A DNA stretch of 64,000 bases, from the NCBI RefSeq assembly GCF_054482525.1, contig NZ_JBTHVG010000003.1. One strand, written 5' to 3'. Below, piece by piece: positions 15,785 to 62,600 of the stretch. Both the position numbers and the translations under genes were made by a program. Source of the stretch: a plasmid. The notes under the pieces were generated by a model. The model searched no databases and was not told the origin of the DNA. It was given only the letters and a program-made list of their open reading frames with translations. Each line of letters opens with the position of its first letter. The stretch's first letter is position 1.

Positions 15785-17017
15785 ATGACTTATGCATCCC
15801 CGGCTCTTCGTCGTAATCCACAGGAAGTATCTGAACACTTTATTAAACTCGTTCATGCTCGAATTGCTGAAGTGTCTGGCTGGAAGTATATATTCGAAAG
15901 AATACCTGCTTTCAAAGACGCTTGTGCAAAAGCCCCGAGCCAGGTTCCTTGCCCGTTTACTGGCGCAGGGAAATCGAAGTTTCGTTTCCGACAAAAAGAC
16001 CTTTATACCGGATGTGCGATCCATAATGACTTTCCGGTAAATGAGTTTTGCGACGGAATTGATGTTCTGGCGAAATATTATGAATTAAGTAAAACGCAGA
16101 CTTGCAAAAAGATTCTCTCAGATTTTTTCGGGATGGATCTGCATGCTCCGTTAACTGACGCCGACATTGAAAATGAACGACGCTATAAATCAGCAGTTCG
16201 TGCCACAGAAACTCTTGACCGAGAGGAAGTGGCAAAGCGAATGCGAAAACTTGATGTGATGTATCACTATACCGGTGAAATCAAGCCTAATACTCCTGTT
16301 GCTTTGTACCTCCGTAATCGTGGGATCTCCCGCTTACTGAGTCACTTACCAAAGGATTTAGGCTTTAATAACCGGATCTACTATTGGGATAAAGATAAGC
16401 AGAAATCGATTATCTATCCGGGAATGATTGCGATCTATCGTGACACCCGAGGTCGGCCTCTGACTATTCATAGAACATACGTAGACAAAAATGGTGATAA
16501 GGCACCTGTAGAAAATCCAAAGCTGATGATGAAGCCTCCTGCCGATATGACAGGTGGCTCAATTCAGTTGTTTGACCCTCACTATGATTCAGGTAGTTCG
16601 ACCTGGACACTGGGAGTGGCTGAAGGGATCGAGAACGCGCTTTCTGTTGTAGAAGCGACTTCAACACCATGCTGGGCAGCCAGCTCCGCATGGTGCCTTG
16701 AAAACGTTACTGTTCCTGATTTTTTACTGCCTCCGCCGGATGTAAAATCTATAAACTTTTATATCTGGGCGGATAAGGATATTGCTAACTCACAAGGCAC
16801 TCGTGCCGGTATTGAAGCTGCTCAGCGACTTCAAAGCCGCATGGTTGAGTTTTTGGCTAAACGATATCCCGCATCAAAGCTGACAATTGAAGTCTTCGAA
16901 CCAGCACAAGATATTCCTGATGGGAAAAAGGGTATCGACTGGAACGATGTTCTCCAGTTAACAGGGCAGGATGGATTCCCGATTCACTGGGCTCCTGAAT
17001 GTCTTAATCAGCTGTAA
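15785..17017 (+). CDS. DNA primase, CHC2 zinc finger + TOPRIM
   Basis: Zinc-finger-like CPFTGAGKSKFRF...C..H; TOPRIM-like GVAEGIENALS and YIWADKD; start moved to the ATG at 15785 (the ORF-track GTG at 15713 overlaps the upstream terminator). Confidence 0.7.
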   Translation: MTYASPALRRNPQEVSEHFIKLVHARIAEVSGWKYIFERIPAFKDACAKAPSQVPCPFTGAGKSKFRFRQKDLYTGCAIHNDFPVNEFCDGIDVLAKYYELSKTQTCKKILSDFFGMDLHAPLTDADIENERRYKSAVRATETLDREEVAKRMRKLDVMYHYTGEIKPNTPVALYLRNRGISRLLSHLPKDLGFNNRIYYWDKDKQKSIIYPGMIAIYRDTRGRPLTIHRTYVDKNGDKAPVENPKLMMKPPADMTGGSIQLFDPHYDSGSSTWTLGVAEGIENALSVVEATSTPCWAASSAWCLENVTVPDFLLPPPDVKSINFYIWADKDIANSQGTRAGIEAAQRLQSRMVEFLAKRYPASKLTIEVFEPAQDIPDGKKGIDWNDVLQLTGQDGFPIHWAPECLNQL

Positions 17018-17028
17018 CAACGATAACT

Positions 17029-17060
17029 CCCCCGCTTTTTGCGGGGGGGGTTATCTTATC
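17029..17060 (+). terminator. Rho-independent terminator after primase
   Basis: CCCCCGC-TTTTT-GCGGGGG stem (G8 run) followed by a T-rich stretch. Confidence 0.6.
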
Positions 17061-51971: not shown

Positions 51972-52343
51972 TTACAGAAATGGAATTAAAAAGTGGTGAT
52001 GCTGGGCACGTTTCTTTTCCAGCCGGGGTTTAAGCCAGAGCTGAAACTCATTCAACTTCTCAGCAGCCAAAACCGCTTCAACGGGGAAAACTTTATATTT
52101 ACCCTGTTGCTGAGGTTCACCCAGCCATCGCCTGATGGCTCCGTCAGTCCATAAACGAGTCTCTTTTAGCCTAGTTACAGTGACCCATTTTCTGGACCAT
52201 TCATCAAATTGTCGCTGGCGATCCCGATAACGTTGTTCTTCCTGCTGCCGAAGCCACTCGCGATCAACAGCAAATTTTCGGTATCCAACAAAGAGCCCTT
52301 GTACTTTGGCCATGTCATATTCCGGTTGCTTAGAGTTACTCAT
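51972..52343 (-). CDS. Hypothetical protein
   Basis: 123-aa ORF with a basic, R/Q/E-rich segment. Confidence 0.35.
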   Translation of the reverse strand: MSNSKQPEYDMAKVQGLFVGYRKFAVDREWLRQQEEQRYRDRQRQFDEWSRKWVTVTRLKETRLWTDGAIRRWLGEPQQQGKYKVFPVEAVLAAEKLNEFQLWLKPRLEKKRAQHHHFLIPFL

Positions 52344-52646
52344 TCAACCAAAACCTAAACGTCGATACAAACTCTGTTTCATAACCAGGGTTTTATCCTT
52401 ACCGCGACAGTAAGTAACAGGGGCTGCATAAACCGGTCATTTAGTCCGTTATGCAAAAATTATTGAGGATCCGGGCTGTTAAACTGTTCTTCCTCTTTCG
52501 CTTCCGGTGAAAAGGGGAGGTGTCACCCTGCGAGCCCGTGTAGTGAAAGGGATTCGTCGTAATACAGGCCAAAGGCTAACATGACCGCAAAGGACGCCCG
52601 GGCGACCGGATACCTGCCGGGTTGTGCGATGTAAAATCCGGAAGCA

Positions 52647-53078
52647 GTGATAACACAAACAGGCCCCTACAGCGTAAGGATTGTGATGGACGATAAAGAG
52701 CAGTTTACGAATCTTGTGGCAAAGCATGCCTCCGGACTCACCGAAGAGCAGCTGGCCGGGTACGATGCCTGTTCCCTGGATGGTGAATGCGTCACGCCTT
52801 CATACGAGGTTTTCCGGGGGTATCGTACCCGCCACACACTGGATGAATTTCTGGAGATGGCCATATCGCTGAATGCCATCCACCCGGATGAATATTTAAC
52901 GGATATGCTGCTGAAGCCTCATGAGGTGATCGGCGCTCTGGCCGATGAAGGCGACCAGCTGAACAACGCCACCCCGGTTTATTTCTTTCCGGATACCGGC
53001 GTCTATGCAGCGGCCGTTAGTGAAACCCGGGTGCTCGATGCCTGGCTTTGCTGGCCATGCTACCCGGCGAACTGGTAA
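52647..53078 (+). CDS. Hypothetical protein
   Basis: 143-aa ORF; no recognised motif. Confidence 0.4.
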   Translation: MITQTGPYSVRIVMDDKEQFTNLVAKHASGLTEEQLAGYDACSLDGECVTPSYEVFRGYRTRHTLDEFLEMAISLNAIHPDEYLTDMLLKPHEVIGALADEGDQLNNATPVYFFPDTGVYAAAVSETRVLDAWLCWPCYPANW

Positions 53079-53552
53079 CGCGGCCGTTGGAATTGCACCG
53101 GCCGGATACGAATTTAACCGACCCCGTGGCGGGAAGGCTATCAGAGTTGCATGTCCTCATCCCTCAAGCCCCCTGCCAGGCCCCAACGTGCTGTCAGGCT
53201 TCGCCTGATTCCCGATCTGCGCCGATACTTCAGCCGATAACTTTTTGTTTTCTTTTTATTTTCTTCCCATTTCCTCAAAAATCGCGGGCGGCGTGGACAG
53301 GGCACCATTGCCGCATGTGGGGTCTTAATAAGGGCAGGGTGGTCAGTTTTGCTCGATGCCAGGGTTAGGCCCTCCCCTTCATGGGATGAGGACATGCAAG
53401 TAAGCTAACTATCTGAAATGACGAAGGTTCATTTGGTGAATGTCGCTTCATATTAATGTTGTGTCACTTATGATCGTATGTAGCTGGTTGCAAAGAGGAG
53501 CGATGAGACAATAAAGTTGTATCGCTAACAAGATTTATGCTGCCACATAGTA

Positions 53553-53620
53553 ACAGCCTAAAAGTTGTACGCCCTATTTAACAGCTTTTAGGCTGTTAAT
53601 TTGATATTACAGCTTTTAGG
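53553..53620. promoter_or_regulatory. Operator-like repeat array upstream of hipB
   Basis: 12-bp motif ACAGCTTTTAGG occurs at 53581 and 53609 as direct repeats, with an inverted near-copy ACAGCCTAAAAG at 53553; 60-120 bp upstream of hipB. Confidence 0.35.
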
Positions 53621-53678
53621 GTGTATGTTTAGGAAACAGCCTGCAAGGTGTATCAGAGGAAACTACTGAGGCCAGCTT

Positions 53679-53975
53679 ATGATCAATAATGATTACCCGT
53701 TAAACACGCTCAACCAGCTGCGTCCCTTGCTCATTGGTTTTCGCAAGGCGAATGGCCTGACGCAAAAAGACCTGTCCGAAAGGTTAGGCGTCACTCAACA
53801 GACATACTCACGTCTGGAAGCCAACCCTGCCAGTGCGAGCATTGAACGGCTATTCAAGGTGTTTTCCATCCTGGGCGTAAAAATCAGCTTCTCCTCGGCA
53901 ACCACCTCTTCAGAGAGGAAGCAGACGGAAGAAATGCTTAAATCAAACTCACCTGCACGACAGGAGGATTGGTAA
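53679..53975 (+). CDS. hipB: HipB-like XRE-family antitoxin
   Basis: HTH segment GLTQKDLSERLGVTQQTYSRLE; stop 4 nt before the hipA start. Confidence 0.75.
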   Translation: MINNDYPLNTLNQLRPLLIGFRKANGLTQKDLSERLGVTQQTYSRLEANPASASIERLFKVFSILGVKISFSSATTSSERKQTEEMLKSNSPARQEDW

Positions 53976-53979
53976 CGAT

Positions 53980-55305
53980 ATGAGCCGGAAACAGCAACGT
54001 CTGGTAATTTGGATGAACGGCATCAAAGTCGGGTACTGGGAAAAAAGCAAAGGGGTAGACAGCTTAGAATACCTTCCTGAATGGGTTGCTGACGAACAGG
54101 GAAGGCCGCTGTCATTGTCCCTTCCTTTTACTCCCGGGAACCAGGTCTGGCGTGGAAATGTGGTACGTGACTATTTTGATAATTTACTGCCGGACAGCGA
54201 AGGCATACGCAGACGTCTGGCAATGCGTTACAAGGCCGATAGCCTGGAGCCTTTTGATCTGCTGACGGAGCTGGGAAAAGACTGCGTGGGCGCGATACAG
54301 CTGCTTCATGACGGAGATGAACCCACTGATTTATATTCCGTGAAGTATCACCCGCTTACTGAATCAGAAATTGCGGCAACTTTGCGTAATACCACGGAGA
54401 CATTGCTACCGGGCAGGCCAGAAGATAACGACGACTTACGTTTATCTATTGCCGGTGCTCAGGAGAAAACAGCCCTACTGTGGCATGAAGAACGGTGGTG
54501 TATGCCGGAGGGTAATACACCAACGACGCATATATTCAAGCTACCGCTCGGACTTGTGGGGAACATGAAAGCCGACATGAGCTCGTCGGTTGAAAATGAA
54601 TGGCTCTGCTCGGTACTTCTCGGCCAGTACGGGCTCCCCGTGGCAAGAACGCAGATTGCTCACTTTGAAGATCAGAAAGCGCTGGTGGTAGAACGTTTTG
54701 ACCGAAAATGGTCAGGAGACGGACAATGGATCATTCGTTTACCCCAGGAGGATATGTGTCAGGCCCTGGGCGTTTCGCCATTACGAAAATATCAGGCGGA
54801 CGGCGGGCCAGGTATATCGGAAATTATGGAGGTTCTGAGTAATTCAGACCGTGCTGAGCGTGACAAAGCGCAGTTTTTTATGACGCAGATAATTTTCTGG
54901 ATGATGGCCGCAACAGATGGCCACGCTAAAAATTTCAGTATTTCTATTGGGCCACAGGGACGTTATCACCTTACACCAAACTATGATGTGTTGTCGGCAT
55001 GGCCGGTGATCGGTCATGGGAACAATCAGATATCCTGGCAGAAGTGCAAACTGGCGATGGCCGTACGTGGCAGTAGCAACTATTACCAGATATATCGAAT
55101 ACAACGACGCCACTGGATCAGGCATGGTGAGATAACCGGCCTGAGTAAACAGCAGACAGAGGCGATGATAGAGGAAATCATCGCCAGAACCCCGGGTGTC
55201 ATTGAACGTGTTAGCGGGCTTCTTCCGGACCAGTTCCCCCAGCAGCTTGCGGAAAGTATTTTTGATGGAATGAGGCAGCAATGCAGGCGCCTGGCTGAGA
55301 AATGA
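53980..55305 (+). CDS. hipA: HipA-family Ser/Thr kinase toxin
   Basis: 441 aa with HipA-like blocks SIAGAQEKTALLWHEERWCMP and GHAKNFSI. Confidence 0.85.
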   Translation: MSRKQQRLVIWMNGIKVGYWEKSKGVDSLEYLPEWVADEQGRPLSLSLPFTPGNQVWRGNVVRDYFDNLLPDSEGIRRRLAMRYKADSLEPFDLLTELGKDCVGAIQLLHDGDEPTDLYSVKYHPLTESEIAATLRNTTETLLPGRPEDNDDLRLSIAGAQEKTALLWHEERWCMPEGNTPTTHIFKLPLGLVGNMKADMSSSVENEWLCSVLLGQYGLPVARTQIAHFEDQKALVVERFDRKWSGDGQWIIRLPQEDMCQALGVSPLRKYQADGGPGISEIMEVLSNSDRAERDKAQFFMTQIIFWMMAATDGHAKNFSISIGPQGRYHLTPNYDVLSAWPVIGHGNNQISWQKCKLAMAVRGSSNYYQIYRIQRRHWIRHGEITGLSKQQTEAMIEEIIARTPGVIERVSGLLPDQFPQQLAESIFDGMRQQCRRLAEK

Positions 55306-55365
55306 CAGCCGCAATTTATAGTGTGCATGTTTTCAGAATAGCTGATGTAAGCGTGAGGATTCAGT

Positions 55366-55572
55366 ATGACTGAAGAACAAAAAAGAATAGAGCGGGCTAT
55401 TGAGTTGGCTTGTCGTTACGGCGGAACCGATGAAATGCATCATCTGCAATGGGTCGTGGATCAGATGGTAAGAGAACTTGCTGGAGAACGTTATGCACAG
55501 ATTGTAGCTGATGCCACCAGCGGAGAAGATGGGCCTGATACTTACAAATGGAGTGTTGGGATCGCGCCTTAA
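55366..55572 (+). CDS. Small hypothetical protein
   Basis: 68-aa ORF. Confidence 0.3.
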   Translation: MTEEQKRIERAIELACRYGGTDEMHHLQWVVDQMVRELAGERYAQIVADATSGEDGPDTYKWSVGIAP

Positions 55573-55673
55573 CAGCTGTCGGTCTGGGGGTGAAAACGTA
55601 TTCTTCATTCAGCGAATTCCCAGGCTTCACATTAAGACTAAAGCGGCGGCCGCAGTAACGTAAGAGAAAATAA

Positions 55674-56084
55674 ATGGCTATTTTAGCAATCATTGCAGTT
55701 ATCGCCCTGGGTGGGTACGCCTACGGATTTATTAAAACCCGTGAGCTGAGCGCTTTGCGTAAAGAAATGAAACTATACGTGGATCGCATGGAAGCGGCGG
55801 AGCTGGACTTACACGCAATCAGAAGTGTAGCGGAGCACCGGTTGCACGGTGCAGGTAAACAGTTTGCCGACCTTTACAGCCGTATCGACGGTGCAACTGT
55901 GACGCTGACACCCGAAGATCAGCTGTTACTGGCAACGATGCCATTTAATATTCAGGATGTAGAAGACATCGTAAACGAGCGCGGTCCAAAGACAATTAGC
56001 GGCCGTCCATTCTGGGAAGTTGAGCCAGGCCCGCATGATTATGAATATGGCCCGCAATATCCGTATTTCCCAGACCAGCGCTAG
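55674..56084 (+). CDS. Hypothetical protein with N-terminal TM helix
   Basis: MAILAIIAVIALGGYAYGFI; ends 12 nt before the HNH gene. Confidence 0.4.
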   Translation: MAILAIIAVIALGGYAYGFIKTRELSALRKEMKLYVDRMEAAELDLHAIRSVAEHRLHGAGKQFADLYSRIDGATVTLTPEDQLLLATMPFNIQDVEDIVNERGPKTISGRPFWEVEPGPHDYEYGPQYPYFPDQR

Positions 56085-56096
56085 GAAGAGATCAAG

Positions 56097-56912
56097 ATGA
56101 GAGAGCCAAGACCACGCCATACCTTGCAGGTCATTCGTGTACCTTCTCTGGAGGTTCAGGACCTGGGGCTGACCAGCTTTGATAGCTGGCTTGACGAGCA
56201 CGGGTATGACAAAACGAATGCCAGAAATAACCGTACCATCTGGGCGAGAGAAGGCGGATGGCATCTGAAACGTTGCAGAAATCTTGAAACTGGCACGGAC
56301 GATTTCTGGTTTATCGCTTTCGATGGTAAAGGCGGGAAGATTTACCCGCTGAAAACCCAAAGAGACTACCGGGCTGCATATCGTAAGCTGGAAGCAGAAG
56401 GTTATGCGCCTGCGGTCATCGAGCAAATGACCACAGGCGCAGCATATAACCTGGCCTATCCACGTTCCACCCTAAAACAAGCTGAGACGGCCACCAGCGA
56501 GCCAATTCGGAAACCTGACGTAGATATCCAGGGTGAGCACTGCGAGCGCGTAGTGACGCAACGTAGTGGCGTGGCACAGGGTAAATTCAAAGCTCTGCTC
56601 ATCGAGAATTTCGCAGGCCGTTGTGCGGTAACCGGTTGGGTTAATGGAGGTGTCCTGGATGCGGCACACATTGAACATGGAACCCGGTACAATCCGTCTA
56701 ATGGCATCCTGATGACTCCAACAATGCATGCGCTGTTTGATGCCGATCTTATGGGCATAGATCCGGCCACCCTGACCGTTCATTTTAAGCCAGGCATTGA
56801 GGTGGGCGAGCTGTTTGAAGGCCGTAAAATCACACCGCTGGTGTACGATCTGGACTTAGAGCGGCTGGCCGTACGCTGGGCAGAATACCAGGGCCTTGCT
56901 CAGGACCAATGA
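56097..56912 (+). CDS. HNH endonuclease with N-terminal extension
   Basis: HNH core CAVTGWVNGGVLDAAHIEHGTRYNPSNGILMTPTMHALFD; AGGAAGAG RBS. Confidence 0.75.
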   Translation: MREPRPRHTLQVIRVPSLEVQDLGLTSFDSWLDEHGYDKTNARNNRTIWAREGGWHLKRCRNLETGTDDFWFIAFDGKGGKIYPLKTQRDYRAAYRKLEAEGYAPAVIEQMTTGAAYNLAYPRSTLKQAETATSEPIRKPDVDIQGEHCERVVTQRSGVAQGKFKALLIENFAGRCAVTGWVNGGVLDAAHIEHGTRYNPSNGILMTPTMHALFDADLMGIDPATLTVHFKPGIEVGELFEGRKITPLVYDLDLERLAVRWAEYQGLAQDQ

Positions 56913-57165
56913 AGGGTGACAGCCAGGTTGTGCCTAAACCTGGCAGTAAAACCTGCATGCCACAAACCTTTAAATTCTGACTCAAGAGCCTGGCACAAGA
57001 TAAAAGCGAAATGAAAAGGTTAAAACCGGTGCACCAGACCTCTTAGGTTTAATACCTGAGCCAGTATACTGGCAGTCTCAGGTAAGTGGGTATCATACAC
57101 TTCAGAAATATCCACACCGAGATAACCGCAACAGTTAAAGAGCTAAAAAGGACGGTTTTAATTTT

Positions 57166-57591
57166 ATGAATAAAACAGCTTTAATTATGATTCTGGGAAT
57201 CCTCGGATGTGGTAAAGCATTTGCAGCCACTGAATTACAGCTCCAGCAAAAACGCGTTATGCATTTCTGTGCCAATGCCAGCCTTCCGTTGTTGATTGCC
57301 GGTACAACTTATGCGAATACGTCTGACAATGGACGACCAGAAAAAGAAAGAGTGGCAATCCTGAAAAATTCAGTTGCAAGCTCGACAGCTTATAAAATGG
57401 CATCTCCCGGAGTTCAGATGGCCATGATGAGCGTGGTGGAAGATATTGCCGATCCGAAAGAATTAGCTCTACATCAAAAAGAAGTTAGACGTCTTGGGGC
57501 TAGTTATCTTTCCGACAGCGGTGTTTCATGGGCTTCAAAAACTGTTTCACCATTTACAGCCTGGTGTAACTTTAACCGTTTAGAAAGTTAA
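57166..57591 (+). CDS. Secreted/periplasmic hypothetical protein
   Basis: Signal peptide MNKTALIMILGILGCGKAFAA. Confidence 0.45.
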   Translation: MNKTALIMILGILGCGKAFAATELQLQQKRVMHFCANASLPLLIAGTTYANTSDNGRPEKERVAILKNSVASSTAYKMASPGVQMAMMSVVEDIADPKELALHQKEVRRLGASYLSDSGVSWASKTVSPFTAWCNFNRLES

Positions 57592-58044
57592 GGCTGGCAA
57601 GGCGGTTCCTGTTCAGGAAAGTTACTTTCCGTGCGGGGACCGTAAGATACAGATAAAGCTTAAGGCCTTTGAATTTTTGGAAAGCATTTGAAAATTTCAT
57701 TGCGCTTGTCTGATATGAAACAGCCCTGCATTTCTGCAAAGGCTGAAAGAGTGTGTACGGACTTTGGAAGGAGTGATGATATACGCCTGAGCCATCCCAT
57801 CACCGCAGACAGGGTAATTAACCCTGACTAAAGCTTTCACCTATTCCGTCGCTCGCAAGCGGCTTTCGCACACTAACGAAGGTATGGCCTTTCGTCGGTG
57901 TTAAATTTTTCGGCTATTTGCAATCTGAGGTTGGATTGTAGATTTTAGTTAGAAATGGATCAAAGTCCGTTTTGTGCAAAACTTGGTTGACAACCCTCTT
58001 TTGGATGATGTGCCGTTTCGTGCAAAAGTTGGTTGGAGGCCAAG

Positions 58045-58287
58045 ATGGCAGAGTTCGTAGGTTCGGCTGCTTCGCAAGCTGATTTCATTTGGAAGAACGC
58101 GGAAGACCTGTGGGGGGGGGATTTCAAGCATACCGACTTCGGCAAGATCATTTTGCCGTTTACCCTGCTGCGTCGATTGGAGTGCGCACTGGAGTCTACA
58201 CGGGAAGCATCGCTCGATAGCCAACCAGCCACGATTGAGTTCTTAGAAGCAGAGTTCAGTGTTGATTTCGATGCGCTGCTATCTTGA
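58045..58287 (+). pseudogene. N-terminal fragment of an HsdM-like N6-adenine methyltransferase
   Basis: [36 protein letters not shown] matches the HsdM N-terminal domain pattern; the reading frame ends at a TGA after about 80 aa with no methyltransferase catalytic domain; GGAGG RBS; contains a G9 tract at 58112-58120. Confidence 0.45.
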
Positions 58288-58947
58288 CCGCCAATCAGAC
58301 CCGCATGGTTCAGGTTTGTGTATGAGAGTCCCCAAATGGCTGTAGTTCTAACCAAAGCCTTGATTGAAGCCGGCCGCACCGGAAATAGTGGGTACAGAAA
58401 AAAGCAGTTGCTTGCGCTGGGCGTAAGTAACCCGCCGAAAAGCGGCTGGATCGAACGACTGATCGGCACTGAGGTATCTGACGAGCAGTACGAACGCTTT
58501 CTGGGGCACAGCACGAGCAAGCTGCATATTCCGGTCGAAAATGAACACCTATTCCGGTTTAAAATGAACGCTGATTCCGGCTTGCGTGTACACCGATTCC
58601 GGACACCTCAGTGCACGTACTCTGATGTCAGATGAACCGTCCTGTTCCAACGTCTTGGATCCACAACTGCCGCGCTGCGCTTGGCTGCTGGCTTGTTCAG
58701 TGAGTCGAAAAGATGCCTCCCCTCAAAGCTCAGCTTCTGCTCGAAGAATCCCTGTCCGCATACTTTCCGGAATCACTGTTCAACTTCACCGGAATACGCA
58801 CAAGCAGGCTGAACAGATCCTACGCGGAGAGCAGCCAGCCAAGGGGCTTCAGTATGCAAAGCGAGCGAAGAAGCTCGCTTCTGAAAGAAAAGCCACAATT
58901 GATCTGGATAACGAGCACCTGTCTGAAATCGAAAAGTATCGGTAGCC

Positions 58948-60987
58948 CTAGACTTTTAGCCGCTGAAGATCTCTTAGATACCATTGGTGAAACTTGCTGA
59001 AGTCAGCCTTCTGTTTCTCTACCGTGCTTTTATAGATCGCATCACTGGTAACCGCACAAGCAGTCCAGCCAGCCTCATAGACGAAGCGAGTAGCTATCGG
59101 TGACTTCTTCGGGGTGCTATCCCAGCGGTTTTTGAGCCACCGCGCAAGCCCTTCATCAAGAGGGACAACCAGATTTAGCTGCTGTTTTGTGCGAGTGATA
59201 CCGACATAAAACAGCCGACGTTCCTCCTCGATTACCTCTTCGGTCGGAGGGGTGTTCATCGATGTGCGAACGCTGTAAACATCATCGGGTTTGCCGCCAG
59301 GAAATTCCTGCTCATTCAGCCCGACCAGTATTACGTTATCCCACTCCAGCCCCTTGGAACCATGCAGTGTGGAAAGGATGAAGGGATCGCAGTCAGTTGC
59401 AGCCTCGCCTGGATTCAAGATAAGGTTTAAAAACGTGCGGGAATCGATCTTACTGGAGACAAGTAGCTCCTCGATCCTCTTGACCCCTCGTTGCTGGTCG
59501 TTCGATCCAGTGCGAGTTACACCCTCAGAGCCAACACTATCAATGAAACCCTCCATACGCAGGCGTAGTAACACATCGATAGCAGGCGTTTCCTCTCCGT
59601 CTTTCTGGCAGATAGTGGCGAGCCTGCCCAGCCGATCTTTTTGGTTTTGTGCGCCCTCGAATAACTGGCCTAGAGCAGACCATAGGTCGGCGTGCGGAGC
59701 CATCAATCCACTGAGCGCCGCTTTGAATTGCCCTTTCTGCCAGCTAAAACCAGCCTCCTTCAGAAAGCCGTAAACAATCGCTTGTTTGTTGGGATGGTTT
59801 TCCAGTAGCCGCAGATCGCCGTACACAGACAGCAAGACGCCAACTACCAGTATCCCGATTTCAGTGCGGGTGTGTAATGCGCTTGAACCATTGAGGTAGC
59901 GATAAGGTAGCCCACACAGGCGTAAAGTAATTTCCGCCTCAGCAAGGTTCGCCTTAGTGCGGGACAATATGGCTTGTGTTCCACTGCTCACCGAGAGGTT
60001 TGATAGCACCTTGGATAGGCAGTTATCAAAGTGCAATCTGACCTCTGTTTTGGGGGTGCTAGGATGACTGACACAAAGCTTGGTCAGCTTTGTAGAGTTG
60101 CGCCGAATTACCGAGTTAGCCATCAAGGAAAGCTCATGGCCAAATCTGAACGTGCATGACAGTTGAAACACCTTCGTATTCGGGTAGTGCTTTTCAAACA
60201 GTCCGCCGATAAAGTCTGGTCGAGCACCACGCCACTCATAAATACACTGGTTAACATCACCAACAGCCATAACTGACGTATCCGACTTAGATAGCAAGCG
60301 GGTCATGTCATGCTGTATCAGGTTAACGTCCTGATATTCATCAACAATGATGTGCTTGAAGTGGGCACCAAGGCTGCTGTCATTACGCAACAGTGCGACA
60401 GCCTCAACCAAACAGTCATCAAAGGTTCGCAGACTGTTTTCCTCCAGCAGCTCACAATAGCGGCCATAGGCGCGAATAAACTCCCGTTTGATGTTGCTGA
60501 ACGTTGGATCATTGGCAGCATCAACAGGAGTTACGGCCGCCGCCCGGCAGCGAGCAATAAACAGCTCGAAGTTTTCAATTTCATTGGGGTCAATAAAATT
60601 CGCCTCATGGTCAAAGCCATAGCAGTAGGCTTGCTTTACCAGTTGCTCATAGCGGTAGTCGCTTGGAGTAATGAGGTCTTTCTTCTTGATTATCTGTTGG
60701 CGTTCTCCGTAACCAACAATCTTTAAGGCCAAGCTGTGGAACGTGCGGATTTCTGGAATCACGCTCGACATCAGTGCCGTCTTCAACTTCTCCGTGAAGC
60801 TCACCTGCGCCGACTTGTTGTACATCAGGATCAGAATGGAGCGAGGATCAGTTCCCGTCTTGACCAGCCGCTCAACGCGCTTTACAAGTATGGTTGTTTT
60901 CCCGCTACCAGGTACGGCTTTTACCAACGCATGTCCGGTGTCATGGCTGACAATACTTTTCTGCTCCCAAGTCAGTCTTTTTGTCAT
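58948..60987 (-). CDS. UvrD/PcrA-like SF1 DNA helicase (679 aa)
   Basis: Walker A AVPGSGKTT, motif II IIVDEYQDVN, motif III VGDVNQCIYEWRGARPDF, motif V ILSTLHGSKGLEWDNVIL, motif VI FYVGITRTKQQL; its ATG overlaps the stop of the upstream gene (ATGA). Confidence 0.85.
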   Translation of the reverse strand: MTKRLTWEQKSIVSHDTGHALVKAVPGSGKTTILVKRVERLVKTGTDPRSILILMYNKSAQVSFTEKLKTALMSSVIPEIRTFHSLALKIVGYGERQQIIKKKDLITPSDYRYEQLVKQAYCYGFDHEANFIDPNEIENFELFIARCRAAAVTPVDAANDPTFSNIKREFIRAYGRYCELLEENSLRTFDDCLVEAVALLRNDSSLGAHFKHIIVDEYQDVNLIQHDMTRLLSKSDTSVMAVGDVNQCIYEWRGARPDFIGGLFEKHYPNTKVFQLSCTFRFGHELSLMANSVIRRNSTKLTKLCVSHPSTPKTEVRLHFDNCLSKVLSNLSVSSGTQAILSRTKANLAEAEITLRLCGLPYRYLNGSSALHTRTEIGILVVGVLLSVYGDLRLLENHPNKQAIVYGFLKEAGFSWQKGQFKAALSGLMAPHADLWSALGQLFEGAQNQKDRLGRLATICQKDGEETPAIDVLLRLRMEGFIDSVGSEGVTRTGSNDQQRGVKRIEELLVSSKIDSRTFLNLILNPGEAATDCDPFILSTLHGSKGLEWDNVILVGLNEQEFPGGKPDDVYSVRTSMNTPPTEEVIEEERRLFYVGITRTKQQLNLVVPLDEGLARWLKNRWDSTPKKSPIATRFVYEAGWTACAVTSDAIYKSTVEKQKADFSKFHQWYLRDLQRLKV

Positions 60988-61970
60988 GCCTTAACCTTGT
61001 AATTGGCGCACTGACGGGCCTCGGTGTAGGGAACGATCTTTGCTTTACTGTGACATTGCAGATAGCCATCCTCCCATCGGCCTGCTTGCTCGCACATAAT
61101 GCAGTTGGGAAATAGTGAATGAGGATCGGCGTGACGGATAAAAGCTCGTAAGTTATCTGCCAGCTCAGCGGCCCCTAACGATCTAGGCCATGTGTTCACG
61201 TCAGAATTGATTGTTAAATCCACTTCAGCGAGCGGCATCGTTTGTTCGTTGAGTCGGCCGGAACCACTTAAACTCCAGACAGACATATCCACGTTACCTA
61301 CTGAGCAGACGCCGCTACAGGTGTCCACAGATTGAAACGGGGGAAGCCAGTTGAATACTCTCAGGATCTTCTCCTTGATCGAGTAGGCCCCGGTAAGCAA
61401 CATCTGAATATCAGAGGCAGATTGGACCTTAAACTCAAGAATCGGGATACCGGCTTCGATCTTGTCTTGAGAGCAGGGGTGTGTGACACAAATCTCTACG
61501 TAGCAACGCCTTTCGCCAGTCGTATCATACAACATCACGTCTGGTCGCAGCCCTGTGACCTTATCGTGTTTTTCCAGCTCTGCCTGATCGAAAAATTGAG
61601 TCAAGTTGTAGCGTGCAGGCACGGATTTTACGCACTGACGTGCTTCGTCTCTAACTAAGGCTAAATGAGGACCATTACAGGCAACCCGGCGCTCCAGCTC
61701 AAGGCTAATAGGCATTTCACGGCTGAGAGCTTGTTGGTAGCGATAGAAGAATGCTTCTTTGCCGCACTTGTGAAGATAGGTTTCAAGGGCACAGCATTCT
61801 TCCGAATGGCGAAAGTGCTTAGCGTTGAACTCGCCCATTACCGGGGTCAGGGGGCTCTTACAACCTGGGCAGGTGTAAGTATGTGAGCGCAGGGCAGCGC
61901 CAATGTGCGTGAGGGTGCCCTCGTCGTCTAGCGCGTAAGCGTATTGTATTGAGCTGGATTGAGTTGTCAT
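60984..61970 (-). CDS. CoiA-like zinc-finger/nuclease-family protein, helicase partner
   Basis: N-terminal YTCPGCKSPLTPVMGEFNAKHFRH signature; further Cys/His clusters; RPDVML...E-x-C patch suggestive of a nuclease core; start set at the ATG at 61970 (ORF-track TTG at 61988). Confidence 0.55.
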   Translation of the reverse strand: MTTQSSSIQYAYALDDEGTLTHIGAALRSHTYTCPGCKSPLTPVMGEFNAKHFRHSEECCALETYLHKCGKEAFFYRYQQALSREMPISLELERRVACNGPHLALVRDEARQCVKSVPARYNLTQFFDQAELEKHDKVTGLRPDVMLYDTTGERRCYVEICVTHPCSQDKIEAGIPILEFKVQSASDIQMLLTGAYSIKEKILRVFNWLPPFQSVDTCSGVCSVGNVDMSVWSLSGSGRLNEQTMPLAEVDLTINSDVNTWPRSLGAAELADNLRAFIRHADPHSLFPNCIMCEQAGRWEDGYLQCHSKAKIVPYTEARQCANYKVKA

Positions 61971-62600
61971 GACTGCGTAGCCTCCCAAAAAAATCCAGCT
62001 AAGAACAGACCTTACGACAGGGAAATGGTAAGTAGTGCTTCTTGAAGCAGTCGAGTGTACAGCGGCTCAGTGAAAAAGCTAATCGCCCGCTCAACAACCT
62101 AGTGATACTGGTGCAGATTCGACAATGAGTTAATGCCCGGAGAGCATCTGCAAGACTTCTAGCTGGAAGGCATTCCAACCAGCCCTCGCTTCTGAAAAGC
62201 CGTCAGGAAACGGTAAAATCCAACCAAGTGAGCAACTTCACTTGATCAAAGATCTAAGGCTAGAATGATGGAATTACAACCTTAGTTTGCAAATAGCCAA
62301 TTTTTCAAACTTTGCTTACTTTGTCAAGGAAGGTGACCGCAGTAGCAGGCACAACTACTTTAATCTGTATGAATAATAAGGTAGAACCGGCCAGTGAATG
62401 AATGCTTACCCTGAAATCAGGCGGACAACCTTCAGGAATATTGATAGCAAGACTGAATCTCTCGCTGCGGCGATAAACATTTCGCCATAACCCTGAACGA
62501 GAGTGGTTCATCCATCATATACAGGAGCGTTACATGCGCAAATTTAAGTACATAATCTGTCACCAGTCCTGACCAAGGTCCTTTCGCCCGGGATGTTAGG

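Follow-up and report, generated by a model that had tools for sequence, protein, structure and literature searches.

What remains of the restriction-modification (R-M) gene whose first codons stand on an IncHI2 resistance plasmid, and can the run of guanines in its coding sequence still switch anything? We addressed this question in 64,000 nt of plasmid contig NZ_JBTHVG010000003.1 (assembly GCF_054482525.1), the whole of which is referred to here as the window, with positions 57,592 to 58,947 in focus. An earlier description made from the letters alone (the sequence-only reading) had noted at this place an HsdM-N-like domain that starts at 58045 and ends at a TGA (58285-58287), a G9 tract within the coding sequence, two 23-bp direct repeats upstream, and a frame that stays open for 116 more codons through the next open reading frame (ORF). 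It had proposed either a decayed R-M gene or a slippage-prone, phase-variable remnant. All of these features are present. What that description missed is the left end of a transposon, the inverted-repeat (IR)-like nature of the direct repeats, and a miniature transposon inside the next ORF. Our analysis indicates that the fragment, here called hsdM', is very probably a nonfunctional scar that marks the left end of an ISL3-family transposon without a transposase, and that its G run drifts in what is no longer a working or switchable gene.

With the ter operon and hipBA close by, the window plasmid was recognized as IncHI2; the relatives that we fetched were typed as IncHI2A. Many plasmids of E. 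coli and Salmonella match the 1.4 kb around the fragment at 100% identity, and the hsdM-like segment is present in about 800 plasmids. For replicon-wide checks we used a complete 243.6-kb plasmid that is identical to the window across 57600-59000. A literature search for IncHI2 or R478 together with hsdM found no paper linking them.

Origin of hsdM' and of the surrounding transposon derivative

The NCBI annotation pipeline (PGAP) labels 58045-58266 as a pseudogene of a type I R-M subunit M N-terminal domain with the C terminus missing. Residues 13 to 59 of the ORF matched Pfam HsdM_N (PF12161; E = 1.6e-9), covering profile positions 3 to 48 of 135. The 80-aa fragment used as a protein query retrieved short proteins and no full-length HsdM, and a sequence search of PDB chains with the intact-type N terminus gave chance-level matches only. 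By tblastn, the fragment was 74 to 77% identical to residues 1 to 70 of intact HsdM. Searches of plasmids by tblastn retrieved intact homologs of 675 aa, each encoded by the first gene of an hsdM-hsdS-hsdR operon. Intact operons of this kind were found on pKpQIL and on Azospira, Acinetobacter, Shewanella, and Enterobacter plasmids, with an ISL3-family transposase gene after each. We rejected an affiliation with PglX (BREX) because every close intact homolog sits in an hsdM-hsdS-hsdR operon. Judged by these homologies, the fragment is of type I HsdM origin, and the first of the two proposals, a decayed R-M gene, is the one that holds.

Alignment to intact HsdM, which the sequence-only reading had recommended for locating the deletion, placed the end of homology at ~58208. 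Thus, only codons 1 to ~55 derive from hsdM, and the last ~25 codons are an unrelated read-out of junction DNA. Past 58208, the window resembled no part of five related elements; in particular, 58209-58335 had no significant similarity to hsdM, hsdS, hsdR, or tnp of these relatives (blastn and tblastx) or to L012, a metagenomic contig with a diverged copy of the locus (local alignment). HsdM homology stops at codon ~55, and the fragment contains no N6-adenine methyltransferase domain (S-adenosylmethionine binding, NPPF/Y motifs). The remaining ORFs of the element described below contain no methylase domain detectable with Pfam. Searches by tblastn, made for hsdS and hsdR with the proteins of two relatives, found no hsdS, hsdR, second hsdM, or ISL3 transposase gene (tnp) in the window. 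A search for the partner subunits elsewhere on the replicon had been suggested; annotation and tblastn revealed none of these four genes on the complete plasmid.

Positions 57912-62298 form a discrete 4,387-bp unit, an ISKpn25-like derivative of an ISL3-family transposon. When the flanks were joined through one copy of AATTTTTC, the reconstructed empty site had full-length plasmid matches at 100% identity, and 621 records covered at least 80% of it. Moreover, the isogenic plasmid L036 follows the window at 99.9% identity as far as 57911 and then passes straight to 62299 through a single AATTTTTC. The empty site, the paired duplication, and L036 together identify the segment as a transposon insertion. 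Its left inverted repeat (IRL) is the left boundary of homology with every relative, and homology to L012, R478, and L018 stops exactly at the right one (IRR). Between them, the unit keeps the leader, hsdM codons 1 to ~55, a small ORF, and a convergent gene pair for a nuclease and a helicase; hsdS, hsdR, the transposase gene, and the remainder of hsdM are gone. Transposase homologs are absent from the unit, as from the window and the plasmid as a whole, so that the unit can only be a nonautonomous derivative.

The unit also occurs at other places. The R478 copy (4,101 bp) occupies another backbone site and has TAAACATA on both sides. Metagenomic contigs L012 to L015, which we reached through a diverged relative of the small ORF, display the same gene order with CTTAAATT on either side, and past their convergent helicase pair lies an ISKpn25-type IRR. 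The three independent insertion sites are evidence that the transposase-less derivative moved at least three times. We considered L018 to L022 as an ancestral, scar-free arrangement and rejected this, as they are further-decayed copies that kept the IRR and lost the left end.

An intact element of the parental type, 11.4 kb long and flanked by the duplication GTTTAATG, is present on NZ_CP133339.1 (pC-CRECL423, an IncC plasmid of Enterobacter hormaechei; L025/L026). Its order is IRL, hsdM, hsdS, hsdR, ISL3 tnp, convergent helicase (679 aa) and 328-aa gene, IRR. Window positions 57912-58208 and 58891-62266 align to L025 at ~88% and flank the missing 7.7 kb, which comprises the 3' part of hsdM, hsdS, hsdR, and tnp; the unit therefore derives from such an element by internal deletion or replacement and has no transposase. 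In the plasmid collection, the intact form was found in one record, compared to ~810 with the deleted form. A more distant relative is ISKpn25, listed as an 8,154-bp ISL3 element with hsdM, hsdS, hsdR, and tnp ORFs (PMC8796155, citing the ISfinder entry). Its transposition into an entrapment vector, with AT-rich 8-bp duplications, has been shown experimentally (PMC8768599). On pKpQIL, the order is IRL-hsdM-hsdS-hsdR-tnp-IRR, and the operon and transposase gene are bounded by ~27-bp inverted repeats (GGCTATTTGCATTCT...) and the 8-bp duplication GAAATTAG. The window is 75% identical to ISKpn25 at the nucleotide level from the IRL to ~58208, that is, over a 133-bp leader and hsdM codons 1 to ~55. 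Table 1 gives the coordinates of all features.

Table 1. Features of the unit and its immediate flanks (window coordinates)
Feature	Position	Strand	Remarks
Target-site duplication, left, 8 bp, AATTTTTC	57904-57911		Identical 8-mer at 62299-62306; single copy joins flanks in L036
IRL, GGCTATTTGCAATCTGAGGTTGGATTG	57912-57938	+	Matches ISKpn25 IRL/IRR on pKpQIL; 21/25 versus window IRR
Direct repeat 1 (DR1), IR-like, subterminal (core TGCAA-N5-GGTTG)	57967-57989	+	Ends in TTGACA; offset +56 from IRL core in L025, L024, L007
Direct repeat 2 (DR2), IR-like, subterminal	58013-58035	+	Overlaps Shine-Dalgarno sequence GGAGG (58035-58039); offset +102 in all intact members
hsdM' remnant ORF, 80 aa	58045-58287	+	ATG at 58045; Pfam HsdM_N; PGAP pseudogene; nucleotide homology to intact hsdM up to ~58208
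G9 homopolymer, within LWGGDF codons	58112-58120	+	Read directly; length polymorphic among IncHI2 plasmids
Deletion/replacement junction (±~5 bp)	58208-58209		57912-58208 = L025 10868-11161; 58891 onward = L025 18870 onward
Chimeric next ORF	58336-58635	+	Codons 1-62 (58336-58522) real small gene; rest is read-through into miniature transposon
Miniature nonautonomous transposon, 278 bp	58523-58800	+	5-bp duplication CAAGC at 58518-58522 and 58801-58805
UvrD-like SF1 helicase, 679 aa, cargo	58948-60987	-	Pfam UvrD-helicase/UvrD_C; PADLOC GajB-like models, 1e-51
Zn-ribbon (CoiA_N-like) plus PD-(D/E)xK-fold nuclease-like protein, 328-334 aa, cargo	60984-61988	-	Overlaps helicase start
IRR, reverse complement GGCTATTTGCAAACTAAGGTTGTAATT	62272-62298	-	Homologous to ISKpn25 IRR
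Target-site duplication, right, 8 bp, AATTTTTC	62299-62306		Identical to left copy; single in L036

Length variation of the G tract

The second proposal, a phase-variable remnant, depends on the G9 tract; no other single-base run in the window is as long. Intact relatives and L012 read TGGGG(T/C)GA(C/T) at this place and thus have G4 (pKpQIL, Azospira, L012). The shortest form on IncHI2 plasmids, TGGGGGGAT (G6), is one synonymous change away from the G4 form. Reading the sequences directly, we found G9 in the window, G8 in L002, G7 in R478 and L003, and G6 in L004. We then searched the plasmids with 90/91-nt probes, all tract lengths being those of consensus assemblies. Exactly G9 was present in 193 of 800 plasmids, and an even sample of 60 comprised 15 with G9, 35 with G8, 7 with G7, and 2 with G6. 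G10 occurred in ~7 records, and one assembly encodes G12. The range from G6 to G10 is found among IncHI2 plasmids that are 98.5 to 100% identical around the tract, and length varies inside both sub-lineages. Since the frame is kept only by G6, G9, and G12, ~70% of the copies are out of frame, near the two-thirds expected without selection.

Slippage, as the sequence-only reading had supposed, is in keeping with tract lengths that differ from G6 to G10. Its other half, functional phase variation, did not stand: there is no methyltransferase domain, hsdS and hsdR are missing, intact relatives have G4, and most copies are out of frame. Without a catalytic domain or partner subunits, a change in the tract cannot switch R-M activity. 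The variation fits neutral slippage in a pseudogene, and the tract as an R-M phase-variation switch is a false lead that can now be removed.

Could the polymorphism be mostly an artefact of sequencing or assembly, with a true tract that is invariant within each lineage? Many of the plasmid records are long-read assemblies, and the lengths do cluster by lineage: the lineage with the miniature transposon has G9, and Enterobacter plasmids like R478 have G8. In L003 (G7), there is an extra indel, and the annotation does not list an intact helicase. However, L004 (G6) has no other indel over 2.6 kb and an intact helicase annotation. The G6 peptide (P0004) is encoded on 491 contigs from several sources, short-read assemblies among them, and G10 is common to four independent poultry isolates. 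Early reference records, which we take as Sanger-era from their accessions, also differ, R478 having G7 and pO111_1 (NC_013365) being one base shorter than NC_012555 by record span, so the polymorphism is not only a long-read artefact. We consider this explanation improbable.

Several observations weigh against the view that hsdM' is a mere scar with a drifting G run. The ribosome-binding site (RBS) of hsdM' is intact, and in-frame G6 versions (P0004) are common in short-read assemblies. Sequencing errors may account for some of the differences in tract length in long-read assemblies, L003 with its other indel being a case in point. On the IncHI2 plasmid, we identified no transposase that could move the unit, and mobilization in trans is something that we infer. 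Finally, the differences between the window and L012 within the 55 hsdM' codons are almost all synonymous (dS 0.55, dN/dS 0.03), which is unlike a long-dead pseudogene shared by descent.

This divergence accrued under purifying selection, and the simplest reading is that it did so in intact hsdM alleles. Divergence in intact alleles would mean either independent truncations or a renewal of the left end through recombination with intact elements. Both possibilities are compatible with the different junctions and the mosaic dS, and neither is proven. The truncation points lie at codon ~55 in the window and codon 84 in L012, with unrelated junction DNA. Between these two copies, dS is 0.55 for hsdM', 0.62 for the small ORF, 0.16 for the helicase gene, and 0.03 for the nuclease-like gene; these values, higher on the left than on the right, show the unit to be a mosaic. 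HsdM N termini are likewise mosaic among L024, L025, and L006.

The same low dN/dS is an argument for a different explanation, namely, that hsdM' encodes a functional stand-alone HsdM_N peptide, a decoy or regulator of ISKpn25-type R-M or of the nuclease-helicase pair, which is ON with G6, G9, or G12 and OFF with G7, G8, or G10. Both the RBS and the ATG are intact, the polymorphic tract has several in-frame states, and an HsdM_N ORF (136 aa in L012) is kept beside the same gene pair in a diverged lineage. Nevertheless, we regard such a peptide as very unlikely. The low dN/dS is explicable by divergence in intact alleles, the out-of-frame fraction across the ~800 plasmids is near chance, and the tract is not conserved, being G4 in intact relatives and L012. 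The C-terminal tails differ wholly (25 aa in the window, 52 aa in L012), and 46 of the 135 HsdM_N profile positions are covered. L018 to L022 have kept the gene pair without the fragment. In addition, a simple scan upstream of hsdM' found no sigma-70-like promoter on the plus strand, which is weak negative evidence.

Two further observations concern G runs in this material. In an IncHI2 plasmid of Enterobacter asburiae (L005 4028-5260), the IS3-family element ISSen4 is inserted directly after the tract (G8, then AT, then the IS), which explains database ORFs with foreign N termini fused at "DFKHT." Two other fusion ORFs, P0015 and P0020, point to additional independent insertions or rearrangements there. 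The sole other long G run of the window (G8, 17043-17050) lies in an intergenic terminator-like hairpin (CCCCCGC-TTTTT-GCGGGGGGGG) after an ORF ending at 17017.

Downstream ORF, subterminal repeats, and cargo genes

The sequence-only reading had also pointed to the in-frame TGA. After it, the hsdM' frame is indeed open from 58288 to 58635 (348 nt, or 116 codons including the stop), through the ORF that starts at 58318 or 58336. However, the DNA past ~58208 is not hsdM, and the next ORF is a separate gene. The same-frame relation has a prior of 1 in 3 and holds only for G6, G9, and G12. It is coincidental, and the TGA is merely where the read-out of junction DNA ends. That the TGA is read through or recoded, yielding a fusion of HsdM_N with the downstream ORF, is scarcely credible in spite of the shared frame: the R478-type copies combine G7 or G8 with a 1-nt change in the small ORF, the DNA between the ORFs is not conserved with L012, and the downstream ORF is independent, having its own conserved start and being disrupted here by the miniature transposon.

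Without interruption, the small gene would encode 108 aa, continuing at 58806-58945 (reconstruction), and intact versions of 108 to 112 aa are found in databases. Its dN/dS against L012 is 0.11, and it matched nothing in Pfam, NCBIfam, or PADLOC. In R478-type plasmids, the miniature transposon is missing from the unit, and the small ORF has a 1-nt frameshift in an A-run (window ~58397-58403). The small gene was thus inactivated in two different ways in two lineages.

The miniature transposon has TG...CA ends, 13-bp terminal inverted repeats (12/13 identical), and subterminal ATTCCGG repeats of ~22 to 23 bp, four on the left and two on the right. The "...HIPVENEHLFRFKMNADSGLRVHRFRT..." residues of the window ORF are translated transposon-end repeats. 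Elements of this type, 278 to 300 bp long and without an ORF or transposase of their own, occupied 355 places in 323 plasmids, among them Aeromonas and IncQ2 contexts. One independent copy, which lies in an Aeromonas plasmid, is 300 bp long, is flanked by the duplication ATTGG, and has one extra right repeat. The right 198 bp of the element equal the same end of mic-qnrS2, the mobile insertion cassette with qnrS2 on IncQ2/IncU plasmids; this cassette was described with 22-bp inverted repeats and a 5-bp duplication (PMC2600179). Our searches did not identify an autonomous parent of the 278-bp element. A Tn7-like neighbor was rejected in this role because its ends are unrelated, and the miniature inverted-repeat transposable element of Aeromonas plasmid pAC3 (PMC5444012) was rejected as a match because it is different, with a 75-bp core. 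The Tn7-like transposon itself lies ~3 kb past the right edge of the window (L001 18300-19401, corresponding to NZ_CP031547.1 ~40.8-48 kb) and displays typical repeated end motifs. It encodes a TnsA-domain protein, a transposase, and a TnsD-like protein, with a frameshifted ATP-binding protein gene between those of the transposase and TnsD.

The two direct repeats upstream of hsdM' belong to the transposon. DR1 and DR2 are identical at 21 of 23 positions, and a repeat search extended them to 34 nt at 79% identity, 46 bp apart. The core TGCA[AT]-N5-GGT[TG]G occurs four times in the window on both strands, compared to 0.4 expected from shuffles. All four occurrences (IRL, DR1, DR2, and IRR) are in the ends of one element, and the whole 243.6-kb plasmid contains no other full match. 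L025, L024, and L007 have three left-end copies at offsets 0, +56, and +102, all in the orientation of the IRL, and one copy at the right end; in L006, DR1 and DR2 are at matching positions. The spacer between the repeats diverges among family members, and in a distant Acinetobacter element the repeats before hsdM covary with that element's own inverted repeats. This pattern suggests that DR1 and DR2 are subterminal sites of the transposase-binding type. Their position next to the hsdM start would account for the survival of the first hsdM codons. In the diverged copy of L012 (5452-5541; P0014), a 46-bp deletion has merged the two IR-like repeats into one, and 84 hsdM codons are present with G4.

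The nuclease-like cargo protein has an invariant N-terminal Cys/His cluster and invariant residues D143, E158, and K169. It and the helicase form a pair that is conserved at 53 to 65% identity in Vibrio, Halomonas, and others, where no ISL3 or hsd genes are nearby and relaxase, deaminase, SIR2, and FRG genes adjoin. As the pair is found elsewhere without ISL3 or hsd genes, it is an autonomous nuclease-helicase module that was captured by ISKpn25-family transposons. It matched no PADLOC (v2) system, and the nuclease-like partner had a marginal DruB match only. The pair is a candidate for an uncharacterized defense or plasmid-competition module. The further-decayed copies L018 to L022 have lost the hsdM' fragment and kept the pair. 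Across Gammaproteobacteria, this conserved two-gene module was seen in contexts resembling defense islands or conjugative elements (L027, L028, L029).

A bolder and more doubtful reading assigns a function to this whole architecture. ISKpn25-family elements may be dedicated carriers of defense cargo, which may include type I R-M, Abi, and the PD-(D/E)xK nuclease and UvrD-like helicase pair outside the defense catalogues. The left-end repeats, all in one orientation, are the IRL, DR1 at a -35-like TTGACA, and DR2 at the RBS of hsdM; they may couple transposase occupancy to R-M expression. The unit on IncHI2 plasmids would still be mobilized in trans by resident ISKpn25-type elements and would keep a working nuclease-helicase module for defense or plasmid competition. 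We think it rather unlikely that all of this holds. As to what such elements carry, an Acinetobacter ISL3/hsdMSR transposon (L016) has an Abi gene between hsdS and hsdR and five IR-like repeats on its left side, and the Azospira counterpart (L007) has genes for a PDDEXK nuclease, a nucleotidyltransferase, and a third protein between hsdM and hsdS.

Proposed history and comparison with known systems

The preferred reading, in which hsdM' is a scar of the left end, can be cast as the following sequence of events. The ancestor would have resembled the intact 11.4-kb element of NZ_CP133339.1, with a type I R-M operon as cargo. Everything between hsdM codon ~55 and a point slightly beyond the transposase gene would then have been deleted or replaced internally, leaving a transposase-less unit of 4.1 kb. 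Having both ends, this unit could have been moved in trans by a related transposase, and it would have entered the IncHI2 backbone at 57911/62299, creating the 8-bp AATTTTTC duplication. The hsdM codons would have been retained through their closeness to the cis-acting left end (the IRL and two IR-like repeats, ending 10 bp before the ATG). A synonymous change presumably turned the ancestral TGGGGYGAY into G6, and replication slippage would then have let its length vary from G6 to G10 (one assembly has G12) with no effect. The small cargo gene was split by the 278-bp miniature transposon, probably at a later time.

The surroundings of the unit differ between the IncHI2 sub-lineages. The R478 site (L017 623-1091 and 5193-5470) has immediate flanks that are absent from the window. 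Window positions 52335-57911 comprise a 5.6-kb block (hipBA, an HNH endonuclease gene, and small ORFs) without a match in the 8 kb of R478 that we examined (L017), and some plasmids (L036) carry the hipBA block without any unit. This layout suggests relocation of the unit within the plasmid, followed by loss of the old site.

We therefore regard the locus as an ordinary remnant. Its most useful by-products are a defined nonautonomous unit of 4.1 kb and the recognition of how IR-like repeats are arranged in this IS group. A single ISL3-derived unit explains four adjacent genes that are labelled as an HsdM pseudogene and hypothetical proteins in ~800 IncHI2 resistance plasmids. Lineage markers for IncHI2 typing are provided by the insertion site (A or B), by the insert of 278 bp, and by the tract length. 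The unit also illustrates turnover of defense cargo in an IS-family transposon, where R-M was lost and the nuclease-helicase pair was kept.

Phase-variable R-M genes with simple-sequence repeats are well known as contingency loci (hsdM, hsdS, and mod) in Haemophilus, Neisseria, and Helicobacter. Like these, hsdM' has a homopolymer in the 5' coding region of a methylase gene, the length of which varies among close relatives and shifts the frame. Unlike them, hsdM' has no catalytic domain or partner subunits, the functional members have G4, most copies are out of frame, and R-M activity cannot give a switchable phenotype.

The closer comparison is with mobile elements. ISKpn25 shares with the unit the terminal inverted repeats (GGCTATTTGCA...), the AT-rich 8-bp duplications, and the layout of the left end, in which the IRL, two IR-like repeats at matching offsets, and a Shine-Dalgarno sequence precede the hsdM ATG at element position 134. 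At 75% identity, however, the window unit is a relative of ISKpn25 and not a copy; it lacks hsdM past codon ~55, hsdS, hsdR, and the transposase gene, and it contains the small ORF and the nuclease-helicase pair, which ISKpn25 does not. The 11.4-kb element of NZ_CP133339.1 agrees with the unit in its inverted repeats, in an 8-bp duplication (GTTTAATG), and in the helicase-nuclease pair; unlike the unit, it is intact and autonomous, and of the small ORF it contains no more than the last ~18 codons. Finally, mobile insertion cassettes such as mic-qnrS2 (PMC2600179) also have IS-type inverted repeats and a target duplication around cargo, lack a transposase, and occupy several sites; the 4.1-kb unit would be an ISL3-family case of this kind. 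It derives from another IS family than mic-qnrS2, which has a 5-bp duplication compared to the 8 bp of ISL3, and where mic-qnrS2 carries a resistance gene, the unit carries a defense-type gene pair and the scar of an R-M operon.

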